NCBI GenBank assembly: GCA_016839705.1 | Contig: JAEOTR010000043.1 | Span: 1 to 43,242 of the forward strand | Length of the DNA: 43,242 nt | Direction of reading: 5' to 3' | Origin: Promethearchaeota archaeon | Lineage (GTDB): Archaea > Asgardarchaeota > Lokiarchaeia > Sigyniarchaeales > SOKP01 | Shown here: positions 6,686-25,364 of the stretch, piece after piece | How positions within the stretch are numbered: the first letter of the stretch is position 1 | Layout: the number at the start of each line of letters is the position of its first letter | Made by a program: the position numbers and the translations under genes | Notes under the pieces: generated by a model | The model's database searches: none | What the model saw: only the letters and a program-made list of their open reading frames with translations | What the model was told of the DNA's origin: nothing

Positions 6686-7981
6686 CTAGGATTTTTGTTT
6701 TTTTTTCCATTCTAAAAAGCTTTTTGTTTCCTTACCTCGAAAAACAGCCTTTTTTCCAGGATTAGTTTTCTCATATTTATCATACAGCTCAATTTTTTGA
6801 TCTATGTTTATATGTTTTGATTCAACTTTAATTGTTTTAAGGTTGAGTTTAGCAGGCTTAGATCTCGGTTTGGTTTTAGATATAACCTCAAGAGGTTTTG
6901 ATTCTTGTTTTATTTCTTTATGAATTTCAGGGGATTGTTGTTCTGATATCATATTTTTACCTTTAAGATTAACGGTATCAATTCTTGGTTTATCGTCAAA
7001 TTGATCTTCTCTAATTTTTGAACTAATGATCAAAAGTTCATTTTCTTCTCTTTTCAATTTAATAAATGTTTCTAATTGTTGTTTACTTTTCTTTTCAGAA
7101 ATTTCTAATGATTTTTTTAACTTATCAACTAATTCTAAAGTTGATTTGATATTTTGCTTTTTTAATTGAATTAATTCTTCTTCTGTTTTTTTTATACCAT
7201 CAAGAAAATTATCTGAAATTGTTGTTTTCTGAGTTGAAATTTTTTGTAATTCCTGTTGAATAAATTCATAGTATTTTCTTTCTTTATGTTCTTGAGAGGG
7301 AATATCTTCTATTTTTATTTTCGGTTTTAGATCACTGAGTTTTAGTTCAATAGAACTTAAATTAACTAAATGTCCTCTCAATTCCTCTTCAGTCTTGCCT
7401 ATGAGCTCAATAAACTCTAAACTTGAATTTTCAGGAACTAGATCTGGAAATAAGATCTCGGATTTTTTCAAAAATGTGAAAATTAATAATTCAATACAGT
7501 CACTAACATTTAGGTTAGAATTAGCTGAAGTTATTGAAAAACTCTTTTTTTCCCCTAAGTAATTTTTAACTGCTTTTTTAAAATCGTTATTCAATGAGAG
7601 TTTATCAAATTTATTCCCAACCATAAGAGTAAACGGATCTTCTGAATATCTTTCTAATCTATCTAAAAAATTCTTCTCATGAGATTTTAACGTTAATTCT
7701 GGTCTCGTCATATCGAAAACTATAAGGGCAAGGTCAACATCAGAGAAAAATGCATTATTTATGGTGGGATTAATAGCCCTATTTCCTCCTACATCCCAAA
7801 TATTTAGTCTAAATGTTACACCTGTTTTTTTTAGTATATAATCTTTTCTACTTATAATACTATTAATCGTAGGCGAGTATTCTTTTGGTACTTCCTTTCC
7901 TAGAAATACATTTATTAATGATGTTTTTCCAACTGAACCTTCTCCATAAACGGCAAGTTTTAAATTAACCCTCTTATCCAA
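6686..7981 (-). CDS. Rab/Ras-like small GTPase fused to a coiled-coil region and a basic C-terminal module
   Basis: G1 GEGSVGKTS, G2 PTI, G3 WDVGG, G4 NKFD, G5 TSAN, followed by ~250 extra aa ending YDKYEKTNPGKKAVFRGKETKSFLEWKKK. Confidence 0.88.
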   Translation of the reverse strand: MDKRVNLKLAVYGEGSVGKTSLINVFLGKEVPKEYSPTINSIISRKDYILKKTGVTFRLNIWDVGGNRAINPTINNAFFSDVDLALIVFDMTRPELTLKSHEKNFLDRLERYSEDPFTLMVGNKFDKLSLNNDFKKAVKNYLGEKKSFSITSANSNLNVSDCIELLIFTFLKKSEILFPDLVPENSSLEFIELIGKTEEELRGHLVNLSSIELKLSDLKPKIKIEDIPSQEHKERKYYEFIQQELQKISTQKTTISDNFLDGIKKTEEELIQLKKQNIKSTLELVDKLKKSLEISEKKSKQQLETFIKLKREENELLIISSKIREDQFDDKPRIDTVNLKGKNMISEQQSPEIHKEIKQESKPLEVISKTKPRSKPAKLNLKTIKVESKHINIDQKIELYDKYEKTNPGKKAVFRGKETKSFLEWKKKQKS

Positions 7982-14615: not shown

Positions 14616-15071
14616 TTAAAATATAGATCTAAATCGATCCTCTGTTTTTAATTTTAAGTCCCCTAAAATTTCATTAATTCGATTCTCAAAATTCTTAAAA
14701 TATTTAGGTTTTTTGGAAAAAATATCGTTGAGTGAAAAGCGATTGAGAAAATGTAACAAAATTTCACCCAAATATTGTTTTACTATCGTGGTATCCGTTC
14801 CCTTTTCAATGATTGCGAATGCTAATAGAGGTTGTTTATTCTCAAGTTCATTTCCGGGTAATTTTATCATTTCACAAGAACATACAAGCTTGAAAGACGC
14901 CAGAGAGATAATAGAGATATCATCACCAAATACTTCACTAGTAAAACTCTCTAATGCCTGTAAAAATCCAGCACGTAAATTTGGATCTAGTACATTATCT
15001 GAAGATGAGTAGTACTTTATCTCAACCAAGTTTTTCATGCCAAAATTGATACCAACTTCTAAAATTGCCAT
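14616..15071 (-). CDS. Longin-like domain protein
   Basis: N-terminal beta hairpin, helix LRAGFLQALESFTSEVFG, further beta strands and C-terminal helices (FLNRF...FENRINEIL); matches the Asgard longin/small-GTPase-associated pattern. Confidence 0.6.
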   Translation of the reverse strand: MAILEVGINFGMKNLVEIKYYSSSDNVLDPNLRAGFLQALESFTSEVFGDDISIISLASFKLVCSCEMIKLPGNELENKQPLLAFAIIEKGTDTTIVKQYLGEILLHFLNRFSLNDIFSKKPKYFKNFENRINEILGDLKLKTEDRFRSIF

Positions 15072-15286: not shown

Positions 15287-16150
15287 TTAAGAATAATTTA
15301 ATTGCTTTTTATACGCTGTAAATGTATTATGTAATAAAAAATGAACCGTTAGTGGTCCAATACCTCCAGGAGAAGGAGTAATTTTACCACTTTTTTCATA
15401 GATGTCATCAAAATTTACATCTCCACACAATTTTCCATTGACTCTATTGATACCAACATCAATTATTATTGCACCATCTTTTATTTTTTCTTTAGTTATA
15501 AAATTTGGATGTCTTACAGCTACAACTAATATATCTGCTCTTCGCATATGACTTTCAATATTTATTGTGGATGTATGACAAACTGAAATTGTAGCATTCC
15601 GTTTAAGCATCATAAAGATTAAAGGTTTCCCGACAAGGTTTGAACGATTAATGATAACTACTTCTTTCCCTTTTAAATCAATATTATAATATTCTAGTAA
15701 GGTAATAATTCCTGTAGGAGTACATGGCGCTAGAGTTTCATTATAATCGTAAAGTTTACCCTTGTTTACAGGGGTTAACCCGTCTACGTCCTTTTCTGGT
15801 GATAAATTTTCAATATACTTTAGAGTATTGGGGGATTGGGATTTTGGGAGAGGTAATTGTAATAGAATACCATGTACTTTATCGTTTGTGTTAAGTTTAT
15901 TGATTTCTTCAATAATTTTCTCTTTTGAAAGATGATCATCTAATTCCAAAATTTCTGATTCAATACCTACAAAAGCACAGGTTCTCTTCTTCATATTCAA
16001 ATAGACTTTTGAAGCGGGATCTTCACCAATTAAAATAGTAACTAATTTAGGTTTAATCCCAGTTTTTTCAACTACCTGGGAAATGTCTTTCTGTAAAGCT
16101 AAATTCAATTTATCAGCTAAAGCTTTTCCATCCAGTATTTTTTCTTCCAT
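15287..16150 (-). CDS. folD: Bifunctional methylenetetrahydrofolate dehydrogenase/cyclohydrolase
   Basis: ILDGK, HGILLQLPLP, EKDVDGL, PCTP, RSNLVGKP, DVGINR, PGGIGPLTV. ATG at 16150 is preferred to the TTG at 16192 in the track. Confidence 0.97.
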   Translation of the reverse strand: MEEKILDGKALADKLNLALQKDISQVVEKTGIKPKLVTILIGEDPASKVYLNMKKRTCAFVGIESEILELDDHLSKEKIIEEINKLNTNDKVHGILLQLPLPKSQSPNTLKYIENLSPEKDVDGLTPVNKGKLYDYNETLAPCTPTGIITLLEYYNIDLKGKEVVIINRSNLVGKPLIFMMLKRNATISVCHTSTINIESHMRRADILVVAVRHPNFITKEKIKDGAIIIDVGINRVNGKLCGDVNFDDIYEKSGKITPSPGGIGPLTVHFLLHNTFTAYKKQLNYS

Positions 16151-16244
16151 AATTTTGAGAACCAATCTAAATTTGATTATTCTGTATTCCAATTCAATAA
16201 TCTCAATTTGGAATATCTTAGGTTTAAAAAATTGGTATTAATCC

Positions 16245-17357
16245 TTAGATTCTTCTTCTACGCCAAATGACTACACCAACTACCACTAATAAACCAATAC
16301 TCCCCATTATAAGTATTAAAATCCAATAATTAAATTCTACCATCCATATATCAACTGCTAATTTTCTTAAAGATGAATCACAAGTGGCTAATGTTTTAAA
16401 GGCAAAATAGGATCCTATAACGGATGAGGAAAGTTGACTATTTCCTTCAGAGATATCAACAAAACCACCATCTTGAAAGTTTTGTCGGGATATTACCCAA
16501 TTTGCTGTTTGATCAGCATTCAGAAGGTTTTTATTTATAGCTGTAATTGCCATTACACAATAAAATGTACTGCTAAGTATGGGGGAATTTGAATTGAGAT
16601 CTGGTAGAAAACCTCCAACTTTATTGATATCTGAAGGATTACTAACATAAAATGATTGTAAGTATGAAAGAGTTTGATTCTTATTTACTAAATCATCTAC
16701 AGATGTTAAAGAATCTAAAAGAGAAACCGCATAATAAGTAGTAATCACGGTAGAAGTGGGATTCCCATAACCACCATCTGTATGATTTTTTGATAGTATC
16801 CAATCCCTATGCAAGGTTACGTTTTGTATGACTTTCGTGGGGGCTAACATAGAATGAATTTGAACAATAAAAAAAGTTGAACTTAATGTGGGGGTCATTG
16901 TCTCATTTTGAAATGAAAATCCACCACCAATTTGTTCTGTATCATTTAAATATTGAAAAATACTATTTTTCAAACTTTCTTCAATTAAATAATCAGTATG
17001 AAGAGTAAATAATGATCTAAGCAGAAAGTACAAATTGTATAAGTTGACCGCATCATTATTAAACATATAATTTATATCATTTTCTAGCTTAGTTTGAAGG
17101 TCATCAGTAACATGGGCAGTTCTTCCTAAACCAAATAAAATCTCCAAAGCATAAGCTGTTGCTTCAATTGATACTTCTTCTATGGTACTAATGCCATTCT
17201 CAAAACCCTGTCCTTCAATCTCGTTTCTATAGATATAATCTGTTAAGTAAACTCTTCTTGTTTTTCCTAAAACACTCGGAATTATGCTTATTACAGAGAA
17301 AAAAACTAGGAATAAAATGAGAATATTGCGATGATTACTTTTCAATGAAACAACCAA
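16245..17357 (-). CDS. Membrane-anchored extracellular prenyltransferase/squalene-oxidase-repeat (alpha/alpha barrel) protein
   Basis: Signal peptide; repeats such as WILSKNHTDGGYG and WVISRQNFQDGGF; C-terminal TM helix followed by RRRR. Confidence 0.78.
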   Translation of the reverse strand: MVVSLKSNHRNILILFLVFFSVISIIPSVLGKTRRVYLTDYIYRNEIEGQGFENGISTIEEVSIEATAYALEILFGLGRTAHVTDDLQTKLENDINYMFNNDAVNLYNLYFLLRSLFTLHTDYLIEESLKNSIFQYLNDTEQIGGGFSFQNETMTPTLSSTFFIVQIHSMLAPTKVIQNVTLHRDWILSKNHTDGGYGNPTSTVITTYYAVSLLDSLTSVDDLVNKNQTLSYLQSFYVSNPSDINKVGGFLPDLNSNSPILSSTFYCVMAITAINKNLLNADQTANWVISRQNFQDGGFVDISEGNSQLSSSVIGSYFAFKTLATCDSSLRKLAVDIWMVEFNYWILILIMGSIGLLVVVGVVIWRRRRI

Positions 17358-17480: not shown

Positions 17481-19001
17481 TCAGAGAATTTCGCTAATAT
17501 CTCTATAGAGAAGATCATGATTGGATTGAAATTGCTCATGTGTAATAAAAAGTTTCTGAAATGAAGGTAAACTCCCCAAAATAGCCGCACCGTTAAAGAT
17601 TGCAAATTGAAAATTGTCAGGAACAAAGAATTTTATCACTTTACTAGAGGATTCCATATATTCAGTAAATTCTTGAGCAGGTGTTTTTTCTTTTGGGATT
17701 TCAGGTTTCTCTAATGAATCAATTGACATTCCACAATAAGGACAAAATAGGGAAGTTGTGTCTTGTATTTCATTATTACAGTAAGGACATTTTTCAAGTT
17801 TTTTCTTTGAACCGCCACTCTCACTTCGAGAAGAAAAATCGATCCTTATTTCTGGTAAGGATACTCTTGCTCCACAAGAAGGACAATATTCATTACCAGA
17901 TGACAGATCTATAAGGGCGCCGCAATGGCTACAAGTATCACGTTGTTTTTTAGAAATCTCAACAGCTTGAAGCTTAATCAATTCAGTCTTCACCGTAGAT
18001 AAGGTTGGTTTTGGTTTAGGAATTGAACCTATTTGTGGTAGAACTGCATTGAGCTCTGATTGAAATCTTTGTTCAAAACCGCTATAGGATAAATTCCCCC
18101 CAGAAAATACTATATGGGACAAAAGATCATGCCAGTGTTGATTATCTAAAACTCTTAAACTAGCAATTACAGCTTCTGGAATGTTCATGACATTACTTAC
18201 ACCTAACATACTTGGATCAAAGAGAACTTCTGGGGCTTGATAAAGAACATGATTTGCAATATTGATAGTGGATCCATCAGGCATAGCGGCAGAAAATTTT
18301 TCTCCAGATTTTGGAGGATTATTGGGATCTATGACAAAGTAACAATTTTTCTCCTTTATATCTTGAATAATTTCATCTGCGGCACTACTAGATATATTCA
18401 CACCCTCTCTCATCAAAAGATTTTTTAGATTATGATTTACATCTATTCCTGCTATGGGAATCTTTTGAACAGCATGATCTTGCAAAACTCCGTTAATGAT
18501 TGGAGCTATCCATGTGAGACCATCACCAGATTCTATAACCAATCCCGTAGTTAGACCTACACTGAATAAGGACAACATTGGTGTAGGCATCATTATTAAG
18601 CTTTTAACACCATGAGTTTCAAACAATAATCTAGCAATATATTCTTTGGTTTCTCTATGCATAAAGGGTGATTCACAATAGAATACAGGATAATCTGAAA
18701 GAGTTTCTACTCTTAATAGGGAATAAAAAATATAGTTCAGAATTTCGTAGAAGCTATCCCACGACATAACAGCACCACGCTGAATTGGATGCGTTATCTT
18801 AAGAACACCGCGCATTCTTGAAACATCGTTTCCTACATAGATACTTCTAGCACTGACGTCAACCATCACAGATTTATATTTTTCAGTACCAGTAATGGAT
18901 GGAAATACAAATCTAGGACCAGGTTCTCCTGCAAATCCTATCTTTACATAAGCAGAGCCGATATCCACTATAATTGGTGTGCCGGGGAAAGGTAATGCCA
19001 T
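17481..19001 (-). CDS. Actin-related protein with a double zinc-ribbon insertion
   Basis: DIGSAYVKIGFAGEPGPRFVFPS, ESGDGLT, DIKEKNCY, PEVLFDPS, SGGN and GAAILGSL align with actin. The insert carries CSHC/CPSC/CPYC/CPYC. Confidence 0.95.
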   Translation of the reverse strand: MALPFPGTPIIVDIGSAYVKIGFAGEPGPRFVFPSITGTEKYKSVMVDVSARSIYVGNDVSRMRGVLKITHPIQRGAVMSWDSFYEILNYIFYSLLRVETLSDYPVFYCESPFMHRETKEYIARLLFETHGVKSLIMMPTPMLSLFSVGLTTGLVIESGDGLTWIAPIINGVLQDHAVQKIPIAGIDVNHNLKNLLMREGVNISSSAADEIIQDIKEKNCYFVIDPNNPPKSGEKFSAAMPDGSTINIANHVLYQAPEVLFDPSMLGVSNVMNIPEAVIASLRVLDNQHWHDLLSHIVFSGGNLSYSGFEQRFQSELNAVLPQIGSIPKPKPTLSTVKTELIKLQAVEISKKQRDTCSHCGALIDLSSGNEYCPSCGARVSLPEIRIDFSSRSESGGSKKKLEKCPYCNNEIQDTTSLFCPYCGMSIDSLEKPEIPKEKTPAQEFTEYMESSSKVIKFFVPDNFQFAIFNGAAILGSLPSFQKLFITHEQFQSNHDLLYRDISEIL

Positions 19002-19088: not shown

Positions 19089-19517
19089 TTAATTTTTCAT
19101 AAATTCATATAATTTTTTCAAAATCTGGTTTTGTACAATTAAACCAATTAATTGACCATTATCATTTACAACAGGCAAACGCTGGATTTTTTTTTCAAAC
19201 ATCAAATTTAATATATTTCTTACCGTTTCATCGCTTTTAACAACAAAAGGTTCGGAAGTCATTAAATCTTTAACAGTGGTATTAGGTGACTCTAAACTCA
19301 TGGCAAACCTAGCTAAACGTATATCTCTTTGGGTGATTATACCAATAAGTTGCTGATTTTTCTGATCTTTTACGACAGGAAGTCCACCTATTTCTTTTCT
19401 TAGCATTAAAATTTCCGTTTTACTAATTTTTTCATTTGGGGTTAAAAAAATGGGATTTTTCACCATTATCTCGGAAGCTTTTATTTCACCAAATTGCTGT
19501 AAGCGATCTTCCCCCAT
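19089..19517 (-). CDS. CBS-domain pair protein
   Basis: IGGLPVV...GIITQRDI and IQRLPVVND.GQLIGLI. Confidence 0.92.
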   Translation of the reverse strand: MGEDRLQQFGEIKASEIMVKNPIFLTPNEKISKTEILMLRKEIGGLPVVKDQKNQQLIGIITQRDIRLARFAMSLESPNTTVKDLMTSEPFVVKSDETVRNILNLMFEKKIQRLPVVNDNGQLIGLIVQNQILKKLYEFMKN

Positions 19518-19625
19518 TTTTAATCTCCGTGTTAGTACACTTTATATGGTTTATAACTAAACATTTCCTATTACATTTTACTAATATTATTGAAAATAAT
19601 CATCCCTAAAATTAAAATTTATTTG

Positions 19626-20006
19626 TTAATTAGTTTTCACTGTTTCTTCCAGATTTAGTGCGATGTTATTTAATTCTTTTGAGTAATCATTATATTTTTG
19701 TAAGATATAGCTCCCCCACTCATTTAATTTAACCCAGCCCCCACCTCCAGAACCGCCCTTACCAGTTATCACGACGGCCATTCCAGTTCTTTTTTCAATT
19801 CTCTTTAGAATATTCCATGCATATTTATAAGAATAATTACACTCTTTAGCTGCTTGTGTTAAAGAACAGTCTTTATTTCTATCTATATTTTTAAGCAAAT
19901 TGGCCCATCCTTTGCCTAGGATACTTTGATCCTCGAATTCTAACCACAATTTTATTCTAAAACTGAGTTTAGATTTTAATTTATCAATCTTGGGTTCTTT
20001 AGCCAT
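19626..20006 (-). CDS. ModE-family winged-helix regulator (DNA-binding domain only)
   Basis: KLWLE...ILGKG..LLKNI...SLTQAAKECNYSYKYAW...GKGGSGGGG; no TOBE domains. Confidence 0.85.
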   Translation of the reverse strand: MAKEPKIDKLKSKLSFRIKLWLEFEDQSILGKGWANLLKNIDRNKDCSLTQAAKECNYSYKYAWNILKRIEKRTGMAVVITGKGGSGGGGWVKLNEWGSYILQKYNDYSKELNNIALNLEETVKTN

Positions 20007-20099
20007 AATTATTATTAATTTTTTCAATATTAATATTTATATTTTTTATAAGAAAAACATTAAATTCAAGATAATTTAATAGGGTTAAGTGAATAGATC

Positions 20100-22628: not shown

Positions 22629-25364
22629 ATGTTTAACCTGAAAGAATTTCAAAACAATTTGGTTCTAGAACCTATTGTTGATAAGCTTAACAAATTTCTA
22701 AATAAAAATAAAACTCAAAGGATCATACAATTAATTGGGGAGTTAGAAAATTTATTAGATCAACCTGAGCATGACGTTTCTGTAACTTATATTTTAAGTG
22801 TATTAGCAGAGCATCATATTAATTTTATTTCTCAGGATATTCTCCAAAGAATTTTACCTTTTCTTAAATCTGACAATATCAAATTGAAAGTTAATTCTGT
22901 GATAATTTTTGGCTTTTTCCTAATAAACGAACTAAAATTGCGAAATAATTATTTTCAGGTATTTGCAAAATTGTTAACAGACGATTCTAAAGATATTAGA
23001 GACAATGTTCATTTTTTTTTCACGGAACTTGTAAAAAAAGATCCTGATTTAGTCAATTCGATTAAAGATATTATATTAAAAAGTCTTTCTCTTGAAAATA
23101 ATAGAGAAAATGTTATGTCTTTGTTAAAAATACTAGATTTTTGCAAAGAATTAACTTTTGATGAGCTATTTTTGTTTCGCAGAATATCAAAATCATTAAT
23201 TACTTCTTTCCATAATGAGAAAAGTAAAGAAATTTATAATGAAATTGTAAAACTTATTGAGAGGTTTTTCCCCTCTTTATCCTTAGAGGGACAAGCATTA
23301 GAATCCCTTGAAATTAAAAGCTTATTAAATTTATTAGATAAACAATTTCTTATGAAAAAAACAGATTTCACAGAGATTTTAAAAAATACTGAGATTAGTT
23401 TAAAAGATTATTTAAAAGAGCTCAATAAATCAATTGAGCGAGAAAATAAAATATACTTCTATACAAAAACAAAGAAAAATACTATATTTGTTTACGAACT
23501 TGAACTAAATAAACTTGTTAACCTTTTTGAGCGAAGTATAAAAATATCACACGAGAAAATACGACAAACTTTCTTTGAAATAATACAAAATGATGTAGAA
23601 CTGAAGAATTTTGTAAATACATTAATTAAATTAAAGATAATTGATGGATACTATTCTGATATAGGATTTTTTTATTCAACCAGCTATATTAAATCCAGTC
23701 TGGTAAGTGATTTAAACAAAAAAGGAATCATAAAACTGGACAAATTTAATTTCATTCCTCCTCAAGTCCTAGGAGATATAATAAAGGATATTAGGATTTC
23801 CCAAAAGGATGACTTACTTCTTGGTAAAAATAAGATTACCTATTATTCATTAAAAATGATTCAAGAACAAATTAATAGAGAAGCGACAAAGAATAGTGTC
23901 GTTGATTTAAAAAGATATAGAGAAAGTATTACTGAAGAAGATTTTATTAATCTTATTAAAAATTTACCACGAGATTATTTATCTAATTATCATAAAGGAA
24001 CCCAATGGTTAACTAATCTAGGGACTCTTAGAATATCAAAAGAAATACAAAGCTCGAAAGTATTTGGATTCTTTGATATCCCAAAGAACTCAAAAAAGCT
24101 AAATATCGGGCAAATCTTACTATATGATGTGTTTGTTAATATTATTGATGATAGAAGTGGGATTTGGGATAAAAATAAAGAAGTTTTTTACTTCTCTAAA
24201 TATTTAACGGAAAAAATCGAAAAATTAAGCTCAATTTCAGATGAATCAGAAAAGAAAATACAAATTGAAATATTAGCTAAAAATCTTAATATCAATAAAA
24301 ATCACATCGAGACTAAGTTAGATGAAAATCTTAAATTAATTGCGGAAGAAATAATGACAAAAGATCAAATAGAAATTAAAGAATATCTTGAAAAAACCGG
24401 GATGGATTTAGAAGTTTTCATGAATTTTATTGATGAATTAGAAATTAGTTACTTTAGGAAAGTGGATCTACTTATTTTTAAAGAGGAAAAAATTGAGGAG
24501 GCAAAGAATGATATCAGGTATATGTTGTTAGATAGATCAAAATCTGAAGAATTTCTCGATCTAGGAAATTTTGATATTAAATCGAATTTAATAAAAGATT
24601 TAATATTTGATTTACTTAAGGATGGAAAATTGAAAGGATTATTCTATGAAAATGAGGGAGAGCTTCTTTTTTATACAGAAAGAGGAATTCGTAATATGAT
24701 GTTAGAAAATAGTTTCCTCTTTTCATTTAAAGATTTGTTCTATGGAAAAGAATTAAGTTTAGAAGAAATTGACTTAATGAGAAATATATTTGATGATCTA
24801 GTTACCAGAAAAAAATTAAGAGGAAATTTCGATGAGGAATCACTAACATTCTCAAGTGATGAGATTTTATTTGCTAAGGATTATAATACAGTTCTATTTG
24901 AATTTGAGAAAACCGTGAATAGTTATATTCAAACGTTTGAATCGGAATATAATAAAATTAAGAAGATATTGACTAAAAAAGAGGAAACGATATTTCCACA
25001 AGAAATTAAATTAATACAAGAAATTATTGATAAAATAAATGGGAATTATGTGTGGTGGAGAAATGGTTTAGACGCCTTTATCCGGAGAGCTAATGAGAAA
25101 TTATTAAAAGAACAAGGTGTTAGTGTTAAAAAGTATAAACGTATGTTCTCCACTGAGCAAAGAGAGGAGATTAAATCATTTGAAGAAGATCCAGAAGTGT
25201 TTGATCATTTAAATAATTTTAAATCCTGGGTAAAGGTTTTTAATAAGCTCGAAGTAAAATATCCAAGTGTAATCTTTTACCATAAGCGCACATCCACTAA
25301 TCCGGGTGATACGGAATCAAATAAAAAGCTACAGGAATTATTAAAGGAATTAATTTTGAATTAA
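22629..25364 (+). CDS. Large HEAT/ARM-repeat plus tandem winged-helix (PCI/UFL1-like) protein
   Basis: N-terminal HEAT repeats (LLTDDSKDIRDN); repeated motifs LIKLKIIDGYY, LLKDGKLKGLF, LVTRKKLRGNFD; helical C-terminus. Confidence 0.6.
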   Translation: MFNLKEFQNNLVLEPIVDKLNKFLNKNKTQRIIQLIGELENLLDQPEHDVSVTYILSVLAEHHINFISQDILQRILPFLKSDNIKLKVNSVIIFGFFLINELKLRNNYFQVFAKLLTDDSKDIRDNVHFFFTELVKKDPDLVNSIKDIILKSLSLENNRENVMSLLKILDFCKELTFDELFLFRRISKSLITSFHNEKSKEIYNEIVKLIERFFPSLSLEGQALESLEIKSLLNLLDKQFLMKKTDFTEILKNTEISLKDYLKELNKSIERENKIYFYTKTKKNTIFVYELELNKLVNLFERSIKISHEKIRQTFFEIIQNDVELKNFVNTLIKLKIIDGYYSDIGFFYSTSYIKSSLVSDLNKKGIIKLDKFNFIPPQVLGDIIKDIRISQKDDLLLGKNKITYYSLKMIQEQINREATKNSVVDLKRYRESITEEDFINLIKNLPRDYLSNYHKGTQWLTNLGTLRISKEIQSSKVFGFFDIPKNSKKLNIGQILLYDVFVNIIDDRSGIWDKNKEVFYFSKYLTEKIEKLSSISDESEKKIQIEILAKNLNINKNHIETKLDENLKLIAEEIMTKDQIEIKEYLEKTGMDLEVFMNFIDELEISYFRKVDLLIFKEEKIEEAKNDIRYMLLDRSKSEEFLDLGNFDIKSNLIKDLIFDLLKDGKLKGLFYENEGELLFYTERGIRNMMLENSFLFSFKDLFYGKELSLEEIDLMRNIFDDLVTRKKLRGNFDEESLTFSSDEILFAKDYNTVLFEFEKTVNSYIQTFESEYNKIKKILTKKEETIFPQEIKLIQEIIDKINGNYVWWRNGLDAFIRRANEKLLKEQGVSVKKYKRMFSTEQREEIKSFEEDPEVFDHLNNFKSWVKVFNKLEVKYPSVIFYHKRTSTNPGDTESNKKLQELLKELILN

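Follow-up and report, generated by a model that had tools for sequence, protein, structure and literature searches.

The window analysed here, a stretch of 43,242 nucleotides from a Promethearchaeota archaeon, carries at positions 17481..19001 (minus strand) a gene for an actin-related protein (ARP) of 506 amino acids in which the actin fold is interrupted by an insert bearing zinc ribbons. The protein has kept a Lokiactin-like pointed-end face, whereas its barbed-end face is divergent, and the residues with which actin hydrolyses ATP are replaced. From these sequence features we tentatively propose that it may be a hydrolysis-poor terminal subunit capping or anchoring the barbed ends of Lokiactin filaments, with the ribbons as a tethered protein-binding adaptor. 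The domain fusion as such has been on record since 2020; in the papers searched we found no mention of the internal position of the insertion, the catalytic loss or the asymmetry of the faces.

An actin fold with an internal insert

The gene is supported by its open reading frame, Pfam, alignment to PDB structures, homologues and a structural model. Residues 9-322 match the Pfam actin family (PF00022) with an E-value of 1.5e-65 and 221.9 bits against a cut-off of 27, and the phosphate-1, phosphate-2 and adenosine loops are present, placing the protein within that family. In the alignment to PDB actin, ARP residues 6-323 match and residues 452-493 then pair with actin 323-364. Since the alignment stops at residue 323 and resumes at 452, some 128-130 amino acids are inserted between actin 322/323 and 324/325. 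The first part of the core (residues 1-323; 18033..19001, minus strand) retains the phosphate and adenosine loops, as judged from the alignment and from invariant residues. The insert (residues 324-451; 17649..18032, minus strand) occupies the subdomain-3 loop at actin 322-325, on the barbed-end face, and the resumed core (residues 452-506; 17481..17648, minus strand) completes subdomains 3 and 1 according to alignment and model. The AlphaFold model, a check proposed in the initial annotation, has a mean pLDDT of 79.5 and a TM-score of 0.9 to actin when normalised by target length; the actin core is confident, the ribbons reach pLDDT 60-75, and the linkers, which vary in sequence, stay below 50.

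An actin core with an insert of about 130 residues and four CxxC pairs, as originally described, is thus borne out by Pfam, the PDB alignment and the homologues. The insert is present in close relatives, where its absence would have pointed to an artefact: four CxxC pairs occur in 119 of the 120 homologues listed, and the remaining one has two. We therefore rejected an assembly or frameshift error as its source, and likewise a recent foreign insertion, as the GC content is the same in insert and core (0.359). The 506-residue frame is a genuine gene.

The CxxC pairs start at residues 357, 373, 405 and 420, and none of 20,000 shuffles of the protein yielded four of them. Pfam reports a single DZR match (PF12773) at 357-424, with 34.7 bits against a cut-off of 27.3, which places the segment in that family. 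The four pairs therefore amount to two single zinc ribbons making up one Pfam DZR, and not to the two double ribbons first suggested. Ribbon 1 (C357, C360, C373 and C376; 17874..17933, minus strand) is invariant in all 54 clade members. This agrees with the view of the protein as an Asgard ARP, here of Lokiarchaeia, with a conserved insert. Ribbon 2 (C405, C408, C420 and C423; 17733..17789, minus strand) is found in 48 of the 54 and is absent from Lokiarchaeum and from family f4. The invariant cysteines suggest that the ribbons bind two zinc ions. Because family f4, with ribbon 1 only, branches first in the tree, one ribbon was probably ancestral, the second being gained later and lost again in Lokiarchaeum.

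Folded alone, the insert gives two separate ribbons in no fixed mutual arrangement (pTM 0.31). A PDB fold search with the insert alone returned no match at E 0.001, the best, non-significant hits including RNA polymerase subunits, and a comparison with Atlas features gave no usable match. Among orthologues its net charge varies between -18 and +9, and no basic surface is conserved; this variability makes nucleic-acid or direct lipid binding unlikely and favours the binding of proteins by the conserved ribbons together with short hydrophobic motifs (L344, I385/I387 and E444-F445). Of the adaptor role imagined at the outset, a flexible link to partners thus fits the models, but direct contact with lipid or nucleic acid is unlikely. 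About 25 other proteins encoded by the same genome have similar ribbons, several of them being hydrophobic, membrane-like proteins with the ribbons at their ends, and these proteins are a likely source pool for the ribbons of the ARP.

Replacement of the hydrolytic residues

All 54 clade members keep actin residues D11, G13, K18, G156, G158, E214, G301 and G302 unchanged, which makes nucleotide binding probable. The hydrolytic site is altered: in the window copy T140, E157 and W164 (18510..18584, minus strand) align with actin Q137, D154 and H161. Across the clade, Q137 is lost in every member (to T, S or A), D154 is E in 51 of 54, H161 is lost in 50 and kept in four, and H73 is R in all 54, whereas 35 Lokiactins keep all four residues. 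In actin, Q137 positions the attacking water while D154 and H161 activate it, and the ATPase of a triple alanine mutant at these sites was not measurable (PMC9646518). The ARP thus departs from bona fide actin at its catalytic residues, and given these replacements and the inactive mutant, its ATP hydrolysis is probably weak or absent. Catalytic loss alone is not special, because the other two Loki ARP clades also mostly lack these residues.

Asymmetry of the filament faces

Actin 322-325, which we take to be an intrastrand contact segment, was counted as such. Intrastrand contact segments came from PMC9379983 and PMC10019781. The pointed face matches the Lokiactin consensus with an identity of 0.54, against 0.27 for the barbed face and 0.37 for the remaining positions, with a permutation p of 0.004 that, like all face p-values here, is approximate because positions inside segments are not independent. 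The same picture is seen in 13 deep-lineage rows (pointed 0.55, barbed 0.24) and in families f3 and f4 alone (0.51 and 0.22). As controls, a eukaryotic actin has the reverse pattern (0.44 and 0.70), and the other two Loki ARP clades (0.38/0.45 and 0.26/0.23) have no significant asymmetry. The two longitudinal faces are therefore not conserved together as expected of bona fide actin. Neither this asymmetry nor the loss of the hydrolytic residues was noted in the initial annotation.

On the pointed face, the D-loop (residues 39-52; 18846..18887, minus strand) has Lokiactin-specific residues, the Lokiactin length and a hydrophobic tip, and residues 64-67, corresponding to the actin R62-G63 strand, are invariant. 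The PDG motif is kept in other ARP clades too, so part of the pointed-face signal is structural. On the barbed face, the W-loop residues Y166 and F169 are replaced by variable polar residues and the 287-290 key of segment 283-295 is also replaced; 47 of 54 sequences have a Trp at 290 that is specific to the clade. Conservation of this face within the clade (0.65) is fairly high and fits a function of its own. Cross-strand contacts are divergent from Lokiactin (identity 0.25-0.29). Lokiactin itself is 96-100% identical across the sampled family-f1 genomes. Overall, the ARP shares with Lokiactin and eukaryotic actin the fold, the nucleotide-binding loops, the D-loop length and the pointed-end contact segments; it differs in being a separate clade with 35-38% identity, with Q137, H161 and H73 replaced, divergent barbed segments and the 130-residue insert.

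Relation to Arp2 and Arp3

The phylogeny asked for at the outset, with Lokiactin, other ARPs, Arp2 and Arp3, was computed from the actin core alone under LG+G4, with named Arp2 and Arp3 database sequences, mostly animal, that had been retrieved with two 46-residue Arp2 and Arp3 motif queries; the branches are long. The zinc-ribbon ARPs are monophyletic (100/100) and lie outside the Lokiactins, which form a group of their own (97/97), while Arp2 and Arp3 are placed on the side of the eukaryotic actins (100/97). AU tests rejected grouping with Arp2 (p-AU 0.001) and with Arp2 and Arp3 together (p-AU 0.0007), and rejected grouping with Arp3 weakly (p-AU 0.035), the last being weak because the model is simple and the branches are long.

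The initial annotation had placed the ribbons in the Arp2/Arp3 insertion loop. The loop is indeed the same, but a special tie to these proteins does not follow: their inserts, of about 11 residues in Arp2 and 16 in Arp3, are unrelated in sequence to the ribbon insert and, unlike it, have no cysteines. Arp2 and Arp3 also retain Q137, D154, H161 and an actin-like W-loop, which the ARP does not, and the 8-residue insert of Arp3 near position 147 is absent from the clade. The KPKP at the start of the insert (residues 329-332; 18006..18017, minus strand) had been thought reminiscent of Arp3. We rejected this homology, as KPKP occurs in 3 of 54 clade members and 6 of 120 homologues, with only the preceding L-G-x-x-P retained, and as it opens the insert about 125 residues upstream, whereas in Arp3 it abuts the re-entry strand. 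The Arp2/Arp3 signature set of triad, insert near 147 and KPKP before the re-entry strand is thus not found in the ARP, and the best reading of the shared insertion site is that a loop tolerant of insertions was used independently.

Distribution, orthologues and other ARPs

In the Lokiarchaeia order of the window, 142 of 154 genomes gave a clade-level match, among them 38 of the 39 of high quality, and the gene is single-copy in all of them except G195. Most named homologues carry the label Promethearchaeota or Lokiarchaeota. The best matches examined from beyond the order were Lokiactins that lack ribbons; the ARPs of five sister-order genomes were all of other kinds; and among the best 150 matches of a profile search over 1.8 billion representatives, ribbons at this site were confined to clade members. 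G147 lacks the ARP together with its membrane-protein and ModE-like neighbours (see below); the absence of the ModE-like gene as well suggests an assembly gap or loss of the block. G195 carries, besides its full-length gene, a 385-residue duplicate without the insert (L035; contig C37, 4973-6130, minus strand), nested in the clade on a long branch. It lacks the D-loop and the PDG motif, lies outside the gene block and was seen in this one genome.

Exact sequence look-up identified two members from cultured species, UYP44711.1 of Ca. Lokiarchaeum ossiferum (L040) and QEE17409.1 of P. syntrophicum (L045), and tree, insert site and gene order place both in one orthologous clade with the window ARP. 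UYP44711.1, nested in the clade, differs from the window copy in having one ribbon. QEE17409.1 (557 residues, DZR at 373-430) has the same insert site, two ribbons and gene block, with a longer and more acidic insert. In the Prometheoarchaeaceae, the cultured species among them, the D-loop of the orthologues diverges further and four residues are deleted at actin 200-204.

QEE17409.1 corresponds to DSAG12_03244, which the supplement of Imachi 2020 lists as a fusion of an actin-related protein with a double zinc ribbon (PMC7015854). A prior description, named at the outset as a possible refutation if joined to functional neutrality, thus exists; neutrality was not shown there. In P. syntrophicum the ARP reached an RPKM of 229 against 501 for Lokiactin (PMC7015854). 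Three ARPs appear in Fig. 5d,e of PMC9834061, UYP44711.1 being one of them; the paper places it among 'other ARPs', and RT-qPCR in L. ossiferum found it transcribed and Lokiactin severalfold higher, while the main text never mentions zinc. In the papers searched we found no mention that the ribbons of QEE17409.1 are inserted internally, that catalytic residues are lost, that the faces differ in conservation, or what the protein does, though an earlier description is possible, and a literature search with incomplete coverage of key reviews returned no function for this or any other Asgard ARP.

The genome of the window (G000) also encodes a Lokiactin (contig C32) and a 373-residue ARP (contig C34, 43123-44241; locus L104:421-1542, minus strand). 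In this C34-type ARP, segment 283-295 and the W-loop are Lokiactin-like, the D-loop is divergent and R62-G63 is absent, which makes it a candidate pointed-end binder by sequence; its asymmetry is not significant (p 0.53, five sequences). Both ARPs occur in most f1 and f3 genomes, their genes being unlinked, and four f4 genomes (63-88% complete) that have the ribbon ARP yielded no recognisable orthologue of the C34 type. A fourth, most divergent Loki ARP, present in most relatives, was not found in G000 (93% complete).

Gene neighbourhood

The next gene on the same strand (16245..17357, minus strand) encodes a protein with a signal peptide, an alpha-alpha toroid, a C-terminal membrane helix and a short basic tail. 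This type-I membrane-protein gene follows the ARP in 59 of 62 loci from four families, usually after a gap of 75-190 bases that is T-rich in the window's genome. Its cytoplasmic tail has only 5-7 residues, relatives occur in Thorarchaeota, and no orthologue was found in G276 or G274, both of which keep the ARP. An obligate partnership was rejected, and the linkage is no more than suggestive of a partnership. The conserved block also includes FolD (15287..16192, minus strand; Pfam and synteny) and, upstream, a CBS-pair gene with a ModE-like helix-turn-helix gene (19089..20027, minus strand), this pair being conserved in f1 and f3. At many of the loci FolD and the ModE-like gene are likewise linked to the ARP, and since FolD is a housekeeping gene, the meaning of the synteny is limited.

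Discussion

We infer ATP binding without hydrolysis, Lokiactin binding, capping and any partner in proposing that the ARP acts as a terminal subunit. It would be a low-abundance actin paralogue that binds nucleotide and hydrolyses it poorly. An actin subunit enters a barbed end through its own pointed face, and the Lokiactin-like pointed face of the ARP (D-loop, R62-G63 strand and subdomain 4) could dock in this way on Lokiactin, at the barbed end of a monomer or filament. The barbed face of the ARP, which lacks the W-loop aromatics and the 283-295 key and carries the insert, would then block Lokiactin addition on that strand. Binding of a partner protein by the tethered ribbons could leave the filament end capped, anchored or both, plausibly near the membrane. 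With only the pointed face kept, hydrolysis probably lost and a bulky tethered module on the barbed face, a terminal subunit is the simplest reading. We also count in its favour the near-invariance of Lokiactin, a fixed surface to match, the lower transcription of orthologues than of Lokiactin, and the single case of L035, in which insert, D-loop and PDG motif were lost alike.

The main evidence against capping comes from a cross-linked anti-Lokiactin co-immunoprecipitation in L. ossiferum, in which one profilin, five gelsolins and an ARF GTPase were enriched and the accessible part of the report names no ARP (PMC13716822). Further, part of the pointed-face signal is structural, the barbed face is itself fairly conserved within the clade, one ARP would block one strand only, the cross-strand contacts are divergent, the Prometheoarchaeaceae carry the altered D-loop and the 200-204 deletion, and the cells already have gelsolins that could cap. 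CapZ and gelsolin are barbed-end cappers or anchors that do not have actin folds, dynactin Arp11 caps the pointed end, and we know of no barbed-end capper with an actin fold. These proteins and nuclear Arp4-9 may offer analogies, for an end block or an inert scaffold. More doubtful is the fuller idea that a catalytically dead paralogue ends Lokiactin filaments while its ribbons tie the ends to a membrane-associated partner, as an independent archaeal form of end control that mirrors Arp2/3, perhaps with a second ARP as its counterpart at the pointed end.

Several other roles must be weighed against capping. We consider it somewhat unlikely that the protein is a monomeric scaffold in a non-filament complex, in the manner of the nuclear ARPs or Arp10/11, with an inert actin platform whose insertions block polymerisation and whose ribbons bind proteins, possibly in connection with the neighbouring surface protein. 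The lost hydrolytic residues, the large insert in a contact loop, the silence on ARPs in the accessible part of the co-immunoprecipitation report, the linked membrane gene and the ribbons on membrane-like proteins would all suit such a scaffold, which nonetheless leaves the Lokiactin-like D-loop and the invariant R62-G63 strand unexplained; as for the membrane protein, its minimal tail, its absence from two ARP-bearing genomes, its relatives in Thorarchaeota and the linkage of FolD and the ModE-like gene as well speak against it. That the ARP forms a filament or short oligomer of its own, or enters Lokiactin filaments as a sparse co-polymer whose looped-out insert recruits partners, is less probable still. 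The retained D-loop length and hydrophobic tip, the conserved barbed face with its Trp 290 and the flexible linkers would permit it. However, the D-loop of a homopolymer should drift with its own cleft, yet here it stays Lokiactin-like while the W-loop aromatics have become variable and polar; divergent cross-strand contacts, loss of the hydrolytic residues and expression below that of Lokiactin also count against either kind of filament.

The opposite conservation pattern of the C34-type ARP and its co-occurrence in most f1 and f3 genomes would be consistent with a head-to-tail pair, which would form a closed heterodimer or else make up both ends of a mini-filament like that of dynactin, but with its asymmetry not significant, the genes unlinked and no orthologue recognised in the four f4 genomes we regard such pairing as quite improbable. 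Zinc ribbons are often found in nucleic-acid machines, and RNA polymerase subunits are among the non-significant fold matches; with no match at the threshold, variable charge and no conserved basic surface, ribbons that bind DNA or RNA and give the actin fold a segregation or chromatin role seem highly improbable. Hardly tenable is a relative or precursor of Arp2/Arp3 that nucleates filaments from a pointed-end template. The shared loop and the KPKP of the window copy had pointed that way, but the idea is largely refuted by the AU tests, by the triad and W-loop that Arp2 and Arp3 keep, and by the missing insert near 147. Moreover, nucleation from a template would call for an intact barbed face, and here that face is the divergent one; the polarity predicted for the ARP is the reverse of that of Arp2/3.

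Published work on Asgard actin regulation points to gelsolins and profilins (PMC13716822). Within the order to which the cultured Lokiarchaea belong, the zinc-ribbon ARP is near-universal and single-copy. If barbed-end capping is its function, actin paralogues specialised for end binding would have arisen in archaea without any link to Arp2/3 or dynactin. Being restricted to one order and not an Arp2/3 ancestor, it has no direct bearing on the origin of eukaryotes.

Additional observations

Other actin-like genes met in the comparison differ in architecture. Four sister-order ARPs (L145:202-2703, L147:1174-2634, L148:70-2652 and L149:1-2145) are open frames of 487-861 residues without ribbons and have a weak winged-helix match (PCI or DDRGK-like) after the actin fold, followed in three of them by a long low-complexity tail. 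Three family-f1 genomes have a second Lokiactin-like gene with 83-84% identity (G257:C58, G268:C22 and G239:C46). In G398, a 700-residue frame (L120:991-3090, plus strand) has Lokiactin-like residues 82-379 ahead of 10-84 and is either a circularly permuted or a misassembled actin; G399 is split similarly.

Elsewhere in the window, positions 14616-15071 (minus strand) encode a conserved 151-residue protein without a Pfam match, longin or Roadblock-like by eye, whose gene is linked throughout family f1 with those for FolD and a DRG-type GTPase. A 431-residue protein (6686-7981, minus strand) has an N-terminal Ras/Roc small GTPase domain and a long C-terminal part to which no domain was assigned, and its gene adjoins that of a 303-residue helical-repeat protein. 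A 911-residue protein (22629-25364, plus strand) matches a HEAT-type family (Cnd1) and, weakly, the beta2-adaptin appendage, which makes it a possible coat or adaptin-like protein.
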